A DNA stretch of 64,000 nucleotides from Eledone cirrhosa. Its lineage: Eukaryota. A program made the translations under genes and the position numbers. Position 1 is the first letter of the stretch. Each line of letters starts with the position of its first letter. The stretch spans positions 30,566,001 to 30,630,000 of the forward strand of contig OZ024752.1 in the NCBI GenBank assembly GCA_964016885.1, given 5' to 3'. Below, in pieces: positions 22,648 through 62,473 of the stretch. The notes beneath the pieces are model-generated. The model saw only the letters and a list, made by a program, of their open reading frames with translations, had not been told where the DNA came from and did not search any database.

Positions 22648-23559
22648 TTAGCAGTGGTACCCGGCGTTGCACGGGATAAGGTATTTTGGAATGCGGGCTG
22701 CCAACAGACCTAATCGTGGAAAAACTGCATGCCTGGACAATATGTAAAGAAAATAAACCGAATACTCTGATGGCTGGATAGTCTTTAAGATTTTCCTCGA
22801 TGAAGCAGGAAAAATGCAGTTTTCTCCTAATGCGGGCCCTAGGGATCAAGAAAATGAATTTTTTTTTATGTGCATAATATGCTTTGAAATTTCGGGAAAA
22901 TCGGCTAGACGTAACGCCTCAAGAAAGCCCTAAAAAGCTGAAAAAATGAAGTTTTTCACCTTATGCGGGCCCTAGACCATAAAAAAGTTGGATTTTCTTT
23001 GCTCACGGTATGAAGAAGAGACTGACTAATACATAGTTACAATTTCAAGGAAATCAGTCTGACGTAACGACTCAAAAAAACCCTAAAAACCTGAAAAAAC
23101 GCAGTTTTTCAACTAATGCGGGCCCTAGTAGATCAAAAAGTCGAATTTTTTTATGTGCATAACACTCCCTGAAACATAAGTAATACACATGTAAAGTTTT
23201 GAAAAAGGTCGGTTGGGTACTTCTCAAGTTTTAGGGATTCAAACTCACAGACACACACACACGCACACACACAGGGAAGTGACGTAATGCAGACATCCAG
23301 ACATACAGACAGATATTATAACGGCGCGACGTTATATATATGTATCTATCTAAAAAGAGAAAGACTAAGAATTATAGAGAGAGATCGCTAAATCGCCAAA
23401 TGCGGTCCCTAGGGCATTTAAAATTAGAAATTTTTTTTTTTGCTCAGAACACTCCCTAAAACATAAGTATTACATGTGTAAAGTTCGGTTGGGTGGTTCT
23501 CGAGTTTTAGGGATTCAAACTCACACACACACAGACATCCTCAGTTTTATATATATAGA
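22648..23559 (-). mobile_element. Non-autonomous Helitron A
   Basis: Minus strand starts TCtatatatataaaactgagg; ends with hairpin cccgtgcaacgccggg and CTAA (degenerate CTAG); internal subrepeats (atgcgggcccta). Confidence 0.75.
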
Positions 23560-24334
23560 CTAGCAGAAAACCACCCAGTGGGCGGTTTTCTGCTAGCAAA
23601 TCTAGTGTATATACTGAAATTTTAATCATACTATTAGGTGTGAATAAGGAAATATTTTTTTATTGTCAAAACAAATGTTCAAAAGTTAAACTTCAACTTT
23701 TTGAATTATTTCCAATTTTTTCATGAAATTGAACACTGGACATTGGCTGCTGGAAATGGAAATTAAATCGTATTTAATTGTATTTAAATTTCTAACCTTA
23801 TTTTATTATTTATATTTTTTCAATAAGAAATAAAAAAAAAACAACAACAAATTTGAAGAAAAATATTGAACAAATCAAACGCAGGTTATGGAACTGCGCA
23901 ATCTGATTAATAAATTACCTCATCAGCAGCAACCTTCTTCAAATGGTCCTTATTATCAGCAGCAACAACCACAAATTCAATGGCAACCTTCTTCGCATGG
24001 TGTCAAGTCAGAAGCGCCTCGAACTGGTTACTTCTGGCTTGTGCAAGGTGTCTCTATAGCAACCAGCGATTCCCTCGGCCTCAGTGACCAAAGTCAGTGG
24101 AGAGGGGAAGGTAATGTTTCTATAGCGACAGTGTTTCTCTTGGTAGTACCAAAGTGGAGCAAGGAAGGGGAAGGTAATATTTCTGTAGCACGTGTTTTAG
24201 CGTCTATTCACTCTCTCTCTCTCCCTCCCGCTATCCCCTCTCGAAGTCTGTCTCTTTCTTTCACTCTCACTCTACGCACGTGTTTCCACTGTCGGACAGA
24301 CAGATAAATTGCTGGTTATATATATATAAGTAGA
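23560..24334 (-). mobile_element. Probable non-autonomous Helitron B abutting Helitron A
   Basis: Minus strand starts A|TCtacttatatatata; ends in a 37-bp near-palindrome terminating CTAG. Confidence 0.55.
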
Positions 24335-25460: not shown

Positions 25461-25517
<57 letters not shown>

Positions 25518-25610
25518 AGATCAAAAGATGGTTAAAGGAGTTCCATATATTTTATTATGCGCATTTCAAAAACAAACATCATGCAAACACAATTACACCC
25601 ATATAGAATG

Positions 25611-25738: not shown

Positions 25739-25842
25739 AAATATATAAATATATAAATATATAAATATATTTATATATATATAATTATATATATATATAT
25801 ATATAATATATAAGATAAAAAGATGGTTAAAAGAGTTCCATG

Positions 25843-25913
25843 TATTTTATTATGCGCATTTCAAAAACAAATATCATCATGCAATAATATTTGTGTTTTC
25901 ATCAGATAAAATA
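25843..25913 (-). ncRNA. Type I hammerhead ribozyme (family A)
   Basis: tattttat-CTGATGA-aaacacaaatatt/atatttgttttt-GAAA-tgcgca-TA-ataaaata; palindromic stem III AUGCGCAU. Confidence 0.85.
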
Positions 25914-25971
25914 TGTTGATTTAAAACTGCACTATTCACAAGTGTTTTTTAACCTTCATATCATGTCTTCT

Positions 25972-26042
25972 TATTTTATCTGATGAAAACACAAATATTA
26001 TTGCATGATGATATTTGTTTTTGAAATGCACATAATAAAATA
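25972..26042 (+). ncRNA. Type I hammerhead ribozyme (family A)
   Basis: tattttat-CTGATGA-stem II-GAAA-tgcaca-TA-ataaaata. Confidence 0.8.
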
Positions 26043-26168
26043 CATGGAACTCTTTTAACTATCTTTTGATCTTATATATTATGTATACTGCAGTCCTACA
26101 AACTGTAGAGTGCTTCTTATCCAATATCTGCATTGCTTTATTGTACTACAATAAAACTCACCTCCTAC

Positions 26169-26231
<63 letters not shown>

Positions 26232-26233
26232 TT

Positions 26234-26442
26234 ATGCAAAAGTTCTATTTAAATTGTTGGGATACAACAAGCAAATATTTTTATAACTGATATAAAGCAC
26301 TCGACAAATATTTGGAGTAAATATACGATATTAACAAATGGAAACTATATTTATAAAACCATATTTATTTCATTATATATATCCTTGAAATATATATAAT
26401 GAAATAAATATGGTTTTATAAATATAGTTTCCATTTATTAAT

Positions 26443-26445
<3 letters not shown>
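26234..26445. mobile_element. Family B fragment with fold-back; truncated HHR at the apex
   Basis: Arms ~26327-26380 and ~26392-26445; apex atcctt-GAAA-tatata-TA-atgaaata; homologous to 53200-53360. Confidence 0.7.
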
Positions 26446-26493
<48 letters not shown>

Positions 26494-26656: not shown

Positions 26657-26805
26657 GAATATATATATATATATATATATAGTTGAATATAAAAGAGAGA
26701 TGAACACAGATATAAACATATATGTGTTCAAAGCTATTTAATTGTAAGAGACTATTTTGAATTTCTAACTCAATATATACCTTTATATATATATATATAT
26801 ATATA

Positions 26806-27028
26806 GTGAGTGCTGGGTGCTTTTTTGCCGTGGCACCTCCACGACCACTTTACAGTGGAATGATATCGACCCCAGTCCCTATCATCTCATTTCTACAGCT
26901 GAGTAAACTGGAGCAATGTGAAATAAAGTGTCTTGCTCAAGGAAACAACACATCACCTGGTCTGAGATTTGAACTCACAACCTTTCGATTGCAAGGCCAA
27001 TGCTCTAACCACTAAGCCATGTGCCTCC
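26806..27028 (-). mobile_element. tRNA-derived CORE-like SINE (5' part)
   Basis: Inverse of 34166-34390; A box tggcttagtgg, B box gttcaaatc. Confidence 0.8.
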
Positions 27029-27218
27029 AACCAAGAGATATACTTTAACTTTAATTATATCTCATAAAATAATACAACTGGTTTTTCCACATTATACATA
27101 TTGTTAGCACCCCAAACACTTAAATTGGGTTTATATTTTAATATAACCTAATGTTTGTTGAGTGAGATGGTTACCAGTCAGAGTTTAGCTTTAAACTATC
27201 TCTGTTATTGTATTAAAT

Positions 27219-27257
<39 letters not shown>

Positions 27258-27374
27258 TAAACGGAATAGAAAATGCTGACAAATTGTTCACAGTTGAAAA
27301 ATGGTTTAATTAGGAATAAAAGAGTATTAGTGATTGTATGGGTTAGTATTCAGTTGTGGTTTTAAGTTTTTAAG

Positions 27375-27413
27375 TTTTTACCGGTTGCGCATTTCTAAAT
27401 GCTTTTCAAAAAT
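27375..27413 (-). ncRNA. Variant hammerhead-like motif in the PLE left arm
   Basis: Reverse complement of 30027-30065. Confidence 0.55.
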
Positions 27414-27835
27414 AATTTTGAGATAGAGTGTCCGTGCTGTTTGCTCTGATCTGATTAGTTTTGGGAATTCTACCTGTTTTTATGTTAAAAAAGTGGCTCC
27501 AGCGTTACTTTGGTGTTGCAAAAATTCTTGTGGTCAAAACAATTTTGATTGGTCGGTAGAGGTCATGTGAATGTAAAAAATTGATTTTGCGCCAAGACTG
27601 TTTTTATGTTAAAAAAGTGGTTCCAGCAAAAATTCTTGTGGTCAAAACAATTTTGATTGGTCGGTAGAGGTCATGTGAATAAAAAATTGGTTTTGCGCCA
27701 AGATTGAGAAATGACTCTTTCACAACAAATATGTGTGTGTGTGTGTAGTAGTAGTAGTAGTAAGGTGTTCGATGTTGTGATAATGGTTAGCAGCGATGTG
27801 TGTCAAATGGCTATTAAGATAAGTGTGTGTGTGTA

Positions 27836-29016
27836 ACAAACCCTACAGGCAGAAATCTGGGACCGCTATGGGAACGAAAACAGCCCCCACTTATGCCAAC
27901 CTAGTCATGGGATACCTGGAAATCACCCTCTACACTAAAGTCCTAAACAAATTTGGAAACACCCTCCACTTACACATTGAACTGGAAGCGATATCTAGAT
28001 GACTGCTTCATCCTTTGGCACGAAAACATAGAAAAACTTAAAGAATTTCACACCCTTATAAATGGGCTCAACACAAATATTAACTTCACGATGGAATACA
28101 GCCATCAACAACTCCCCTTCCTCGACATCCTCATTAAGATCCATAACAAAAAAAATAGAAACAGACATATACTACAAGCCCACAGGACTCCAAGCAATAT
28201 CTCCCCTTCAACTCTTGCCACCCTAGACACGTTAAAATTAATATTCCCTACAACTTAGCCAAGAGAATCTGTACTATAGTCTCCAATAAAAACATCTGCT
28301 ACTTACGGCTACAAGAACTAAAGGACACACTCATAGGCAGGGACTACCCTGCATCACTAATTGACAATGGAATCCAACGTGCCCTAAAACTCAGTACCCA
28401 GGACCTTAGACACCCTAAAGTAAATCAACCAAAACTAAAAGCTCTTCCATACATCTCCACACACAACCCCCTCAACAATGAGGCCTTTGACACCATCCTC
28501 CAGAACATCCCTGTATTGAAAAAGGACCATAGAATGAACCAAATTCTACGAACACACGATATCATAAAGAGCAAAAGACAATCCAAGTCAATGAAAAACA
28601 TCTTAACACATGCCAAAGTACTGCCAACCACAACAACGAAACCCACAGTAAAAAAATGCGATAGACCCAACTGTGGCATTTGCATCAACCTAATAGAGGG
28701 TTCGGAATTCTATTTCAAAGATGGACAACGTTTTATAGTAAAACACAATTTCACATGTGAATCGGAAAATCTAATATATGTATTAACTTGTTCAGGTTGT
28801 CGAGAACAATACATAGGCCAGACCAAAATCAAAATACGGGAATACAGGAAAATACCACTGAGTGAACACATTGATACCTGTGCCGCCCAAAATCATCCCA
28901 ACTTCAGAATCTTTCCCCTCTACAAATTTAAAGATAATGCCACCCACACCCAGCGCATCAGCAAGGAATCTTACTTCATTAACAAATACGGACCCCGTCT
29001 AAACACTTCTCCCTAA
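27836..29016 (+). pseudogene. PLE reverse transcriptase C-half, Cys linker and GIY-YIG endonuclease (frameshifted; Neptune-like)
   Basis: YRQKSGTAMGTKTAPTYANLVMGYLE, WKRYLDDCF, LPFLDILI, QYLPFNSCHP, CDRPNCGIC, NLIYVLTCSGCREQYIGQT. Confidence 0.9.
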
Positions 29017-29166
29017 GACGAACCCACAACATACACACGTCAACATACATACCTACATCAGCACACATCTCTACCCACATATAAACACAATGACATATGT
29101 AAACACACATGCTCTATGGTGCAACACAAAAAAATATATGTGCATATATGTATGTATATATATGTA

Positions 29167-29236
<70 letters not shown>

Positions 29237-30026
29237 ATATATGTATGTGTATATATATATAGTGAATATCATTTCACACCTTTTATTGTTAAGATTTTTG
29301 ATGTTCTATTAGGAGAACCGATTTTACTGAAAAAATCGAATAATGTACACCATTTTACCAGGGGGAAAAAATACTGGTCCCCCCCCCCCCACACACACAC
29401 ACATACACACATATACACACACACATACACACGCGTACATCAACATACAAAGAGACTTATATATACACACACACACACGCACTTCTCCGTATAAGACAAA
29501 AGCTGAAAAATATCTTTTGACATGCTAAAATACCCCCCATTGCTTTCAGACACATTCTTACTGACCATCCCTGCCACCACGAATTACTCTGCTATACACA
29601 CACACACACACACACACTTATCTTAATAGCCATTTGACACACATCACTGCTAACCATTATCACAACATCGAACACCTTACTACTACTACTACTACACACA
29701 CACACACATATTTGTTGTGAAAGAGTCATTTCTCAATCTTGGCGCAAAACCAATTTTTTATTCACATGACCTCTACCGACCAATCAAAATTGTTTTGACC
29801 ACAAGAATTTTTGCTGGAACCACTTTTTTAACATAAAAACAGTTTTGGCGCAAAATCAATTTTTTACATTCATATGACCTCTACCGACCAATCAAAATTG
29901 TTTTGACCACAAGAATTTTTGCAACACCAAAGTAACGCTGGAGCCACTTTTTTAACATAAAAACAGGTAGAATTCCCAAAACTAATCAGATCAGAGCAAA
30001 CAGCACGGACACTCTATCTCAAAATT

Positions 30027-30065
30027 ATTTTTGAAAAGCATTTAGAAATGCGCAACCGGTAAAAA
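30027..30065 (+). ncRNA. Variant hammerhead-like motif in the PLE 3' region (U3:A8 core; GCAA instead of GAAA)
   Basis: ttt-TTGAAAA-gcattt/aaatgc-GCAA-ccgg-TA-aaa; same architecture as family D. Confidence 0.55.
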
Positions 30066-30130
30066 CTTAAAAACTTAAAACCACAACTGAATACTAACCC
30101 ATACAATCACTAATGCTCTTTTATTCCTAA

Positions 30131-31081
30131 CTAGCAGTAAAGCCCGGCGTTGCTCGGGGTCGCTCAGTAGCTGTGTTAAAGTTACAATGTTAAGTTTCTT
30201 TTTTGGCTTAAAAACTGTAGTGTCTACTGTGCAGACTTGCATGTGGTGTTTTTGATTAATATTCCCTCAACCAACAATATGCCTTATGAAGTTAAGAAAA
30301 CATAACGATAACCCGAATGTTATAACAAAAGAGGATGCTGGGGATAAAAACTGCACTGGTTATTTATTAACAAAGATCGAAAATGTAAACACTGCAACGC
30401 AGAGAAAAACATTAGCGTAACCAAATTATCAGTTATGTCTGTCTGCACGCCTATATCACCCCTCTGCACGACTGTCTGTCTGCACGCCTATATCACCTCT
30501 CTGCACGAATGTCTGTCTGCACGCCTATATCACCTCTCTGCACGACTATCTGTCTGCACGCCTATATCACCTCTCTGCACGACTATCTGTCTGCACGCGT
30601 ATATCACCTCTCTGCACGACTGTCTGTCTGCACGACTGTCTGTCTGCACGCCTAACGACGAAATATTTGCTTGTTTTACGTAGTCTTTAAATAGACTTGT
30701 TTTCAAGTAAAAATATTGTTTTAAAATGCTTTTAAATGGAAATGAAGCAAAACGGAAGCTTAGTGTTCGAACTGATGAATTTTGCAGGTCAATATTTTGC
30801 TGGCTCGACAACTGTTAAAGCCAGCGTAATTTTTTACGTAAGACGCTCAATGTAAACAGAACAAAGGGAAATAACTGATCACTTACGCTCAAAAATCGAT
30901 ACATTATATTCGATTTCGTCACATAGGGTGGGTCAATTTGAAATTTTTTTTTTCCGATGTCTTCGCTAGGGCTCAATGTACAAGTATAGCAATTTCGGTG
31001 CAATTCCGTGAGAGATTCTAAGAGGAGATGTGTGCCAAAAATCGATAGACAGACAGACAACCACAGTTTTATATATATAGA
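30131..31081 (-). mobile_element. Non-autonomous Helitron C (951 bp) inserted in the PLE right arm
   Basis: 5' TC, 3' hairpin cccgagcaacgccggg then CTAG; A|T insertion without TSD, confirmed by the empty site in the left arm (atggtttaa|ttaggaataa); internal 37-bp repeats at 30436-30655. Confidence 0.9.
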
Positions 31082-31172
31082 TTAAACCATTTTTCAACTG
31101 TGAACAATTTGTCAGCATTTTCTATTCCGTTTACCAATATATAATAACTTGTGTGTTACACCGCTATTCTTT

Positions 31173-31241
<69 letters not shown>

Positions 31242-31332
31242 TATATTTAGAGTTATAAACTCAAACAGTCTTTTACAATTAATTAGCTCAAAGAAAGAAG
31301 CATTTCTGAGCCGTGAAATACAAGTTAATAAA

Positions 31333-31511
31333 AATTAATATATGATAAACACTAATATAATCATATAAGTGTTTGTATTGTAAATGACCAAGTTAGCTAG
31401 ATCGAGACAGGCAAACTGTATTAATCTAATTAGTATTTTTCAATCTAGCTAACTTGGTCATTTACAATACAAACACTTATATGATTATATTAGTGTTTAT
31501 CATATATTAAT
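31333..31511. repeat. Fold-back inverted repeat (~70-bp arms) between TA tracts
   Basis: 31333-31402 is the reverse complement of 31442-31511. Confidence 0.85.
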
Positions 31512-31512
31512 T

Positions 31513-31551
<39 letters not shown>

Positions 31552-31673
31552 AGGAGGTGAGTTTTATTTTAGCACAATAAAGCAATGCAAATATCGGATA
31601 AGTAACACTCTACAGTTTGTAAGACTGGAGTATAAATAATATAAGATCAAAAGATGGTTAAAAGAGTTCCAAG

Positions 31674-31744
31674 TATTTTATTATACACATTTCAAAAACA
31701 AATATCATTATGGGATGATATCTGCGTTCTCATCAGATAAAATA
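31674..31744 (-). ncRNA. Type I hammerhead ribozyme (family A; element 31549-31805)
   Basis: tattttat-CTGATGA-gaacgcagatatcat/atgatatttgttttt-GAAA-tgtgta-TA-ataaaata. Confidence 0.8.
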
Positions 31745-32193
31745 GGGATACATGATATGAAACTTAAAAAACACTTGTGAATAGTGAAGTTTTAAATCAA
31801 CATATGAAAAATAAATTAAGATTGATGTATGAGATTGGGAAAAAGTGAGGAAGAGGAAGAGATGAGAGTAAAGAATGGCGGGGGAGGAGTATAAGAAGGA
31901 AGGATGAGAGAGGAGGAGAGATGGGTGATAGAGAGAAAGAGATAGCCTTTACAACTGAGAAAAAAATATATGTTGTCTCACAGAGAGAAATTAAAAAGCC
32001 GTTGGAAGATAATAGATAATTTAAAAGAATTTGAAATTAAAAGTTAATGAGGTTTATGCATGAAGAGAAAAAGGAATTAAGAATAATATTAAATTAAGGT
32101 TTGTGGAACTCTTTTAACTATCTTTTGATCTCATATATAAATATATAGAAATTTTTAGAAATTTATATATATAGAAATGGCTTCTACATGACT

Positions 32194-50233: not shown

Positions 50234-50617
50234 TCATTCATCATCATTTCATTTTACGTCCACTTTTCCCTGCTTGCAAGGGTGGGACGGGAACTGATTC
50301 TGGCTTGATTTCTACAGCTGGATGCCCTTCCTAACACCAACCTCATTTACAGTGAGTGCTGGGTGCTTTTTTGCCGTGGCACCTCCACGACCACTTTACA
50401 GTGGAATGATAGGGATCCCAGTCCCTATAATCTCATTTCTACAGCTGAGTAAACTGGAGCAATGTGAAATAAAGTGTCTTGCTCAAGGAAACAACACATC
50501 ACCCAGTCTGAGAATTGAACTCACAACCTTTCGATTGCAAGGCCAATGCTCTAACCACTAAGCCATGTGCCTATATATATATATATGAAATTGTCTAATG
50601 ACTTTGTGGACACCCTG
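49589..50617. mobile_element. Tc1/mariner-type TIR pair enclosing two CORE-like SINEs (~49625-49977 and ~50240-50572, both minus)
   Basis: TA|cagggtgtccacaaagtcactagacaatt ... aattgtctaatgactttgtggacaccctg|TA. Confidence 0.75.
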
Positions 50618-51934: not shown

Positions 51935-52378
51935 CATCCACTCCCACTGCAAAGTGGTCGTGGAGGTGTCATGACAAAAAAGCACCCTGCCCACACTGTA
52001 AAGTGATCGTGTAGGCGCCACGGTAAAAAAGTATCCAGTACTCACTGTAAATGAGGTTGGTGTTAGGAAGGGCATCCAGCTGTAGAAATCAAGTCAAAAT
52101 CATTTCCCGTATGAGCAAGACAAAGTCACCCGACCTGGCACTGCCCACAACAGGACAACCCGTCTAACCCATGCTAGCGTTGAAAAATGGACGTAAAACG
52201 GTGATCATGATACACACACATCATCATCATCATCACCGTTTTACGTCCGTTCTTCCACGCTAGCATGGGTTAGACGGGTTGTCCTGTTGTGGGCAGTGTC
52301 TGGTCGGCTGACCATGCCTTGCTCATACAGGAACTGATCTGGCTTGATTTCTACAGCTGGATGCCCTTCCTAACACCT
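51935..52378. mobile_element. Two SINE 3' parts arranged tail-to-tail
   Basis: ~52055-52203 and ~52233-52378 are imperfect inverse copies meeting at (CAT)n. Confidence 0.7.
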
Positions 52379-52579: not shown

Positions 52580-52758
52580 ATTAAAAGTTTAACAAGGTTC
52601 AATGAATTCATCAATGAATAAAGTTTCACAATAGATTAGAAGCACTCTACAGTAGGTTTACTGGAGTTATTAATGTTACTTCAAAATATTAATTTAGTCA
52701 TGGCAGTCATGACTAAATTATAACCATCAACATAGTCAAGGTATGTCAGGCATCAACT

Positions 52759-52824
52759 TATTTTATCTGATGAGGACGTACTGTTGAAATAGCTCAGTAC
52801 CTCTGAAATATGTATAATAAAATA
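52759..52824 (+). ncRNA. Type I hammerhead ribozyme (family C)
   Basis: tattttat-CTGATGA-ggacgtactg/cagtacctct-GAAA-tatgta-TA-ataaaata. Confidence 0.8.
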
Positions 52825-52862
52825 TATTTGATCACATGAATGTCTATATTAATATTTTGAAG

Positions 52863-52904
<42 letters not shown>

Positions 52905-52944
52905 GATATTAAACAAATGGAAACTATATTTATAAAACCATATT

Positions 52945-53010
52945 TATTTCATTATACATATTTCAGGGATACCATATTAAAAATATGGCATGCCTTCTTC
53001 AGATAAAATA
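52945..53010 (-). ncRNA. Type I hammerhead ribozyme (family B, inverted arm)
   Basis: tattttat-CTGAAGA-aggcatgccatatt/aatatggtatccct-GAAA-tatgta-TA-atgaaata. Confidence 0.8.
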
Positions 53011-53161
53011 CAATATATAAGCAGTTTTATAAATAAATTTGACGTACCATAAATATTGATCAACTTCCATTTAAAAAGTTGGTTTGGTAGTTGGTTTTTA
53101 AATGGAAGTTGATCAATATTTATGGTACGTCAAATTTATTTATAAAACTGCTTATATATTG

Positions 53162-53227
53162 TATTTTATCTGAAGAAGGTATGCCATATTTTTAATATGG
53201 TATCCCTGAAATATGTATAATGAAATA
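53162..53227 (+). ncRNA. Type I hammerhead ribozyme (family B)
   Basis: tattttat-CTGAAGA-aggtatgccatatt/aatatggtatccct-GAAA-tatgta-TA-atgaaata. Confidence 0.8.
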
Positions 53228-53354
53228 ATTATGGTTTTATAAATATAGTTTCCATTTGTTTAATATCGTATATCTACTCCAAAACTTGTTGAGTGCTTTA
53301 TATCAGTTATAAAATATTTACTCGTTGTAACCCAACAATTTTAAATAAAACTTT

Positions 53355-53421
<67 letters not shown>

Positions 53422-60058: not shown

Positions 60059-60248
60059 AACGAAGGAAATGTGGTAAGGAACCAGATGGACCATAACGCA
60101 CCAAAGTACTCAATACTTAGGGTAGTAGAGTGGGTAATAGGAACGAGTAGGACCCCGACGGCTGAGCTCAAGCCGTTTCGACGGCTAATTCTGGTCCAGA
60201 ATTAGCCGTCGAAACGGCTTGAGCTCAGCCGTCGGGGTCCTACTCGTT

Positions 60249-60253
<5 letters not shown>
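60059..60253 (-). mobile_element. 5'-truncated HHR-bearing element ending in a near-perfect 117-bp palindrome
   Basis: 60137-60253 palindrome; each arm has GAAA-cggct/agccg-TC-ggggt but no CTGANGA half; (TA)n on both sides. Confidence 0.65.
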
Positions 60254-62133: not shown

Positions 62134-62141
<8 letters not shown>

Positions 62142-62466
62142 AAAAAGGGATGAAATCGAAAATGCAACTGAAGTCTTATTTTTTTTTAAAATATATATAT
62201 TTATTTGGTTCCTTTACCGGTTTCGCAGTTCTTCTGCTTTTCAAAAGGTGAGTTGAGATGGAGGGTCTGTAAACCACAGACCCTCCATCTCAACTCACCT
62301 TTTGAAAAGCAGAAGAACTGCGAAACCGGTAAAGGAACCAAATAAATATATATATTTTTAAAAAAAATAAGACTTCAGTTGCATTTTCGATTTCATCCCT
62401 TTTTCTTTATACTTCCACTCGTGTAGGACACCTCGGTTATTTTTCATTTTGTAAAAAAAACCTCAC

Positions 62467-62473
<7 letters not shown>
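62134..62473 (+). mobile_element. Family D element with ~135-bp fold-back arms, in (TA)n
   Basis: 62134-62270 is the reverse complement of 62276-62411 (loop aaacc); 62270-62473 matches 15426-15630. Confidence 0.85.
62298..62335 (+). ncRNA. Minimal hammerhead ribozyme with U3:A8 variant core (inverse copy at 62211-62248)
   Basis: cctt-TTGAAAA-gcag-aagaa-ctgc-GAAA-ccgg-TA-aagg; palindromic stem III ACCGGU. Confidence 0.7.

Follow-up and report, generated by a model that had tools for sequence, protein, structure and literature searches.

Penelope-like elements (PLE) are known to insert with an inverted 5'-truncated copy and a 30–40-bp tail and with a bias toward (TA)n targets (Craig et al., 2021, PMC8557442; here and below, statements about published work refer to the parts of each source that were consulted). 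In this study, we describe such an insertion in a 64,000-nucleotide stretch of the Eledone cirrhosa assembly GCA_964016885.1 (contig OZ024752.1, positions 30,566,001 to 30,630,000 of the forward strand; hereafter the window). A 5'-truncated PLE, assigned to the Neptune type by its architecture, occupies positions 27255–31176 (3922 bp) between two (TA)n runs. It is very probably an ordinary insertion of this type, and a single retrotransposition of an abundant Neptune-type family into (TA)n, leaving a copy that is now dead, is in our judgment the likely and best overall explanation. The Neptune clade (Craig et al., 2021, PMC8557442) shares with it the C-terminal GIY-YIG endonuclease, a CX2-5CxxC linker with a long spacer, the DKG and GxKF motifs (seen here in full-length homologs), the inverted truncated copy, the 30–40-bp tail and the microsatellite target. 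The window element differs in the GCAA core of its hammerhead-like motif, which is family-wide, and in being truncated and broken, and it is placed by architecture and not by a tree in a clade that is itself paraphyletic in PMC8557442.

Similar geometry has been reported in other PLE clades. Penelope-13_HM of the Hydra clade, for which an inverted copy and hammerheads on either strand are listed (PMC8557442, Files S1 and S2), and Pen2a/Pen2 of Adineta vaga (PMC3846280) also carry an inverted 5'-truncated copy at the 5' end; the former is likewise inserted into (TA)n and Pen2a likewise has a one-sided tail. However, these belong to clades different from that of the window PLE, the Hydra clade having DKT and CxCX5C and lacking CCHH, and Penelope-13_HM has a canonical C3:G8/GAAA core. 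The minimal type I hammerheads found in PLE pseudo-LTRs (Cervera & de la Pena, 2014, PMC4209133) resemble the window motif in their U3:A8 pair, with UUGAAAA in Schistosoma, in a palindromic stem III for dimers and in opposite-strand motif pairs 100–700 bp apart, whereas the window motif has A13C, no extra base between 9 and 10.1 and a 3-bp stem I. For PAc, the Poseidon of Anolis (Frangieh et al., 2024, PMC11167929), the protein nicks both strands, extends them and starts at two sites, so that two 3' ends bracket the tail as they do here, and insertion in vitro is normal with hammerhead mutants, an independence that we count as a further likeness. Non-LTR retrozymes (PMC7229834; bioRxiv 10.64898/2026.07.22.740005) are likewise short elements that carry type I hammerheads and are related to PLE pseudo-LTRs, but they are head-to-tail tandem repeats, whereas the short elements of the window are monomers or head-to-head fold-backs; the window PLE was rejected as a retrozyme, being coding and head to head and not made of non-coding head-to-tail hammerhead units. 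The fold-back shape, the (TA)n targeting, the U3:A8 hammerheads and insertion without ribozyme cleavage are therefore already published. Two observations go beyond the literature consulted in part, namely a GCAA core that is the state of the whole family, and a short arm that ends at a target-matching inner TATA in five of five fold-backs; a PLE inner end matching its target was not found in that literature.

The PLE unit measures 2971 bp once a 951-bp insert is subtracted, and has at its front an inverted, 5'-truncated 580-bp duplicate of its own 3' end. This left arm (27255–27834, minus strand) begins within a (CA)n tract, extends to an inner TATA site and has no tail; it is 99.3% identical to the right arm (4/580 mismatches), 27310–27834 being the reverse complement of 29606–30130 with 4 of 525 positions mismatched, all by transitions, and 27255–27309 that of 31082–31136 with 0 of 55. 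The remainder lies on the plus strand and comprises the open reading frame (ORF) remnant (27835–29016), with the reverse transcriptase (RT) from motif B' through the thumb, the CX4CxxC linker and the GIY-YIG endonuclease; a 3' untranslated region (29017–29605) with (TA)n at 29144–29261 and (CA)n tracts; the first piece of the right arm (29606–30130), which is the 3' pseudo-LTR region and contains a 108-bp internal duplication; its second piece (31082–31136); and an inner ATATATA site with a 33-nt tail (31137–31176), which is found on the right side only and has no counterpart in the left arm. The flanks at 27222–27254 and 31177–31246, to which no strand is assigned, are both (TA)n and for this reason no target-site duplication is readable. 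Inverted pseudo-LTR, 5' truncation and one-sided 30–40-bp tail are thus all present, as in the definition of endonuclease-bearing (EN+) PLEs (PMC8557442). An earlier note on this DNA, made from the sequence alone, had described a recent Penelope-like insertion in (TA)n whose inverted arms of about 580 bp, differing at only a few positions, bracket an RT/Cys-linker/GIY-YIG remnant. The insertion, the (TA)n on both sides and the coding remnant with its motifs B', C, CX4CxxC and YIG were all recovered, and the low divergence of the arms holds, although the right arm is not continuous, being split by the 951-bp insert; the note had overlooked both this insert and the one-sided tail. The word recent needs qualifying because the copy has had time to acquire a Helitron-like insert, three frameshifts and a deletion.

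The coding remnant is spread over three frames, with frameshifts near 27978, 28148 and 28185. RT motif B' lies at 27844–27873 and motif C at 27983–28003, the CX4CxxC linker begins at 28657 and YIG is at 28810–28821; RT and GIY-YIG thus occur in what was one ORF, as in EN+ PLEs. Compared with nine homologs, a 13-aa in-frame deletion at 28828/28829 removes the endonuclease stretch with the conserved Arg and the first His, so that of the CCHH motif the window copy retains the cysteines and the second His, while homologs and sibling reads keep the first His as well. With its RT cut at motif B', three frameshifts and the endonuclease deletion, the copy is dead. A protein search with the last frame of 285 aa found 60 homologs of 500–783 aa among 886 candidates (best E 3e-91, 57% identity). 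RVT_1 was detected in all four homologs scanned for domains and GIY-YIG in three of them, and in the deleted window copy the Pfam GIY-YIG match (E=0.011) fell below the cut-off. The endonuclease follows the RT in 49/49 homologs in which both motifs were found, DKG is present in all 35 homologs of at least 700 aa, and the spacer from linker to endonuclease, 24 aa in the window copy, is 23–27 aa in 55 of the 60 homologs, the other five giving no match. A C-terminal endonuclease with a CX2-5CxxC linker is what defines Neptune, and the long spacer resembles the two Neptune rows and not the three short-spacer Nematis rows in Fig. S2 of PMC8557442, a comparison that is our own reading of those five rows and not a published criterion. 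Because of the position of the endonuclease, the DKG and the linker, the following clades, with features as given in PMC8557442, are excluded: Naiad/Chlamys needs an N-terminal endonuclease, Hydra needs DKT and a CxCX5C linker without CCHH, and Penelope/Poseidon are expected to have no Cys-rich linker.

The family is abundant in sequencing runs. Part of 27255–29140 is contained in 20 of the 24 runs listed (16 studies), and four runs were aligned. Organism label A contributes 4496 contigs from run X1 and 17097 reads from run X22, and the family also occurs under label B (38 contigs) and label D (9 contigs). At the three frameshift sites, 325/427, 189/277 and 226/373 of the X22 reads are in frame, and 556 loose sibling reads at 28828 run on into the deleted endonuclease stretch. 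Since siblings mostly keep the frame and this stretch, the damage is largely particular to the window copy or its subfamily. In siblings the ORF sequence carries on upstream of 27834, and this fixes where the window copy is truncated. The tail is also found in a sibling contig of label B, two contigs of label D pass into (TA)n, in one case at the inner end, and one sibling contig lacks the long (TA)n of the 3' untranslated region and seems, from a short match only, to continue near 29275. A 944-nt contig from run X4 under label B has two substitutions over 681 bp (27834–28514) and lacks the three frameshifts; by its sequence it may point to very close kin or to recent transfer between hosts. 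In run X7 under label D, a sibling breaks off at the hammerhead CCGG (27370–27385) and meets (TA)n there, within a few bases of the predicted cleavage site. Among sibling reads, 24 (four starts) carry a fold-back joint at 27447/27451 that may be genuine or an effect of the library. Read ends in X22 at 27285, 27308, 27414, 27417 and 27469 (AATT) and a start at 28612 (CATG) were rejected as molecule ends and treated as effects of restriction libraries, AATT and CATG being, we assume, restriction enzyme sites.

With regard to the insertion mechanism, we lean slightly toward priming on both strands, a model patterned on the in vitro behavior of the anole Poseidon protein (PMC11167929), in an order that we infer as follows. 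The GIY-YIG/RT protein would nick both strands of (TA)n, and each 3'-OH would prime reverse transcription close to the RNA's 3' end. A long cDNA would start at the outer site, include the tail and run for about 3 kb to RT motif B', and a short cDNA would start at the inner TATA and stop after 580 nt in the (CA)n tract, after which the two truncated ends would be joined head to head at 27834 with the 1 nt of microhomology seen there. The frameshifts, the endonuclease deletion and the Helitron-like insert would have followed later, and the short fold-backs of the window would be products of the same sort, made by other PLE lineages. We examined five hammerhead-related fold-backs (the 27255–31176 element, 62135–62472, 52896–53358, 26235–26454 and 25798–26169), with boundaries that are soft within (TA)n and an irregular left flank at 25798. 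All five have one tailed arm that reaches (TA)n at its end and a second arm that breaks off at an inner TATA-type site, where it joins (TA)n; TATA or ATAT starts at 43 of 1293 positions in these elements. This asymmetry would also be explained by a single priming followed by a template switch, in which the cDNA end at 27835 jumps onto its own (TG)n tract and copies the 3' end back in sense, the left (TA)n then being joined at the first TATATA by microhomology so that the inner end is a joining site and not an RT start. Self-priming has been proposed for PLE inverted joints (PMC3846280). However, the joint here has a single nucleotide of microhomology and no palindrome, and inner-site copies with no adjoining long partner occur at 25503–25586 and 259–390, as expected of a second RT start; we regard the template switch as a possible but less favored route than two-strand priming.

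Both arms carry the motif UUGAAAA-stem II-GCAA-CCGG-UA, at 30031 on the plus strand and at 27409 on the minus strand, within hammerhead-like motifs at 30028–30064 (plus strand; C13 at 30053, A17 at 30061) and 27376–27412 (minus strand; C13 at 27387). Each has a U3:A8 core, a 5-bp stem II, GCAA, a palindromic ACCGGU stem III, a UA cleavage site and a 3-bp A-U stem I. The minimal type I core (C3/U3 U4 G5 A6 N7 G8/A8 A9, stem II, palindromic stem III and U16.1-H17) is therefore present, but G12 A13 A14 A15.1 is not, since GCAA stands in both arms and in sibling contigs. An alternative register using a GAAA within stem II was rejected by eye, as it leaves no stem II and no U16.1. The counterpart in the short family D, also of U3:A8 type with ccgg-UA, has GAAA (15458, 62244 and 62302), as the earlier note had seen. 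A hammerhead descriptor matched 12 times in the window, compared with 0.13 times on average for 30 shuffles, and Rfam found no hammerhead at the gathering score for any of these 12.

GCAA (A13C) is the family state and not decay of the window copy, because sibling contigs under three organism labels carry it. A contig of label B spanning 27248–27428 has no difference from the window at a depth of 46.9 and hence reads GCAA, no G>T change being listed anywhere in that run; a label-D contig (27307–27556) has eight differences, all at other listed places and none at 27387; and a diverged contig of X1 likewise reads GCAA. About 1800 X22 reads cover 27387, which is absent among the 40 of 213 variants listed. 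GAAA is at most a minority. The presence of GCAA in both arms bears out the proposal that the change predates arm duplication, whereas the suggestion of a copy with a probably defective ribozyme needs amending, GCAA being the state of the family and not a defect of this copy.

The combination of A13C, a weak stem I and a competing hairpin suggests that the family hammerhead is probably poorly active or inactive. In folding of the window motif, stem II had a pair probability of 0.98 and stem I one below 0.001, owing to an upstream hairpin that captures the core, and in two family D copies stem I reached 0.30 and 0.006; for the hammerhead region, the folding z-scores of −1.19 and −1.20 fell short of significance. 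Both the PLE family and family D have a conserved upstream UCAA (30019–30034 and 62289–62305) able to pair with the core UUGA, a pairing that, on the folding model, may restrain the ribozyme. A13 belongs to the consensus core of the hammerhead (PMC3088659), and core substitutions lower activity 10- to 1000-fold (PMC7092961). Since the family has multiplied with such a ribozyme, hammerhead cleavage is probably not needed for insertion.

It is doubtful, though worth weighing, that the GCAA core is instead a working natural variant, acting as a dimer through ACCGGU or with the help of protein and kept by selection. The remainder of the motif is intact, and none of the 40 of 213 variants listed falls in 27247–27428 despite high depth, where about 3.8 would be expected if they were even. 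A common 1-nt loop deletion (261/1795 reads) spares stem II, the intermolecular stem III duplex has a predicted energy of −8.3 kcal/mol, and the anole PLE hammerhead cleaves only with protein (PMC11167929). Against this stand the consensus status of A13 and the cost of core substitutions given above, and a stem I of only three A-U pairs that is out-competed; moreover, the conservation may reflect RT recognition or mapping bias. Of 14 GCAA occurrences in the supplement of PMC4209133, the seven looked at include none in a hammerhead core. A family-wide A13C core was likewise not found in the literature consulted; a PLE-hammerhead survey, that of Lunse et al. from 2017, and supplements outside the material seen may list the variant. 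That survey is reportedly the largest of its kind.

The earlier note had further proposed that this PLE lineage mobilises the short ribozyme elements (families A–D) in trans, on the grounds that they share fold-back geometry and target. The shared geometry and (TA)n target were borne out by the asymmetry common to all five fold-backs, but this shape is the textbook form of a PLE insertion and therefore creates no special link. The PLE arm aligns with the hammerhead region of family D with a score of 52–59 against a shuffle mean of 22 (reached by 0/200 shuffles), over some 65 nt that begin at D's 5' start and end at the cleavage site, the upstream part alone being equalled in 1/300 shuffles. 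No similarity was found downstream of the cleavage site (135/300 shuffles as good) or in the tail (223/300), so that in the comparison of 3' ends nothing is shared with D. None of five other short hammerhead regions matches the arm other than through a (CA)n tract, apart from one weak 3'-end match (2/200). Since homology reaches only from D's 5' start to the cleavage site, and the starts of D's three copies lie no more than 5 nt apart, at the position homologous to 27442, family D looks, by sequence, like a short 3'-end form of a sister lineage; the window PLE family seems to make such short forms too, and what mobilises D we can only infer. Mobilisation in trans, above all of D, would fit the homology, the common target and shape, siblings that are frame-intact over the stretches seen, and the argument that retrozymes are non-autonomous PLE derivatives (bioRxiv 10.64898/2026.07.22.740005); in addition, the 60 homologs, used in tblastn, recovered no second ORF of this type in the window. 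It is nevertheless unlikely, given that similarity stops at the cleavage site, beyond which lie the sites of RT binding and RT start in the one PLE studied in vitro (PMC11167929), that D keeps GAAA while the PLE family has GCAA, that tails differ in length between elements (40, 64 and 90 nt), and that no cross-mobilisation was seen between co-existing PLE types (PMC3846280).

Short C3:G8 hammerhead elements with an 8-bp stem I, of at least three further families, lie in or beside (TA)n (25798–26169, 25503–25586, 31549–31761, 52896–53358, 26235–26454, 259–390 and 52580–52870), with no matching ORF in the window. A hammerhead pattern scan gave no match in viral_contigs and one in metagenome_contigs (L001), which was rejected as chance, lying in bacterial-like coding DNA of 44% GC that matches neither the window by blastn nor the 60 homologs by tblastn; protein-based locus scans confirmed none of 70 pattern matches in genome_contigs and none of 44 in viral_contigs.

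Several points weigh against the account of an ordinary Neptune-type insertion with a largely silent ribozyme. The Neptune-type label comes from architecture and not from an RT tree with named references. The rule by which the 40 of 213 variants were ranked is unstated, so the share of GAAA is loosely bounded: the weakest of the variants listed that are driven by X22 have about 110 reads, compared with about 1800 covering the site, and by share the weakest has about 38%, and the family could be driven by a minor master lineage with GAAA. The folding used a protein-free 81-nt piece, and a measured rate for A13C was not found in the literature consulted in part. In the work of Frangieh et al. 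(PMC11167929), RT starts without homology to the cut DNA, unlike the inner end here, which coincides with a TATA matching (TA)n. Finally, no read or contig among the records shown spans the inversion joint 27834/27835. This last point and the trouble that PLE inverted structures cause in short-read assemblies (PMC8557442) would fit an assembly artefact, which is nonetheless most improbable because the arms differ by four substitutions, the 951-bp insert and the tail, and siblings show opposite-strand joints elsewhere (27447/27451 and 27856/28516).

The insertion itself is ordinary and dead; its wider significance lies in the family. It is possible, and we put it forward tentatively, that a (TA)n-targeting Neptune-type family fixed A13C while keeping the rest of the fold, either as a working variant or, more likely, as a structural signal that does not cut, and that the inner TATA pairs with nicked (TA)n to start the second cDNA. 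If true, a non-cutting signal would amount to in vivo evidence that cleavage by PLE hammerheads is dispensable, and TATA-(TA)n pairing would explain the one-sided tail. With regard to the role of hammerheads in endonuclease-bearing PLEs, for which one in vitro study found cleavage unnecessary and Craig et al. (PMC8557442) considered ribozymes that simply ride along, the successful A13C family and the homologous GAAA family D form a natural test pair. Descriptor searches that require GAAA would miss A13C families, and the recurrent inner-TATA end offers a testable rule for the formation of tail and inverted arm on (TA)n targets.

The divergence of the arms (4/580, 0.69%) would place the insertion roughly one million years ago if the arms began identical and the calibration of 0.09 to 25 million years (PMC13282606) applies, but the arms may come from different templates or have been homogenised. 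At three of the four mismatches (27325, 27567, 27596 and 27794), the left-arm letter is not listed as differing from siblings, and the changes apparently lie in the right arm, which with so few sites is not significant.

The 951-bp insert at 30131–31081 is a later arrival missing from the left arm, which represents its empty site, with no target duplication. Non-autonomous Helitrons end in 5' TC and 3' CTRR with a subterminal hairpin and insert between A and T without duplication. On the minus strand, the insert runs from TC through a hairpin to CTAG at an A|T site (A|TC...CTAG|T), so that both its ends and its empty site agree with these rules; it carries an internal 37-bp tandem repeat, and its terminal hairpin (−5.8 kcal/mol) is no better than in shuffles. 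The end of a sequence at 23330–23560 resembles this insert (36 bp, 89% to 31049–31084, followed by CTAG and a hairpin) and probably belongs to a related non-autonomous Helitron family. Other long palindromes, with no hammerhead match, lie at 31328–31517, 52059–52377, 60137–60253 and 194–253 (arms 87–99% identical). A tRNA-like match (Rfam 29.9 bits) and similar repeats elsewhere, noted for 50504–50567 and 26805–27035, resemble tRNA-derived SINEs.

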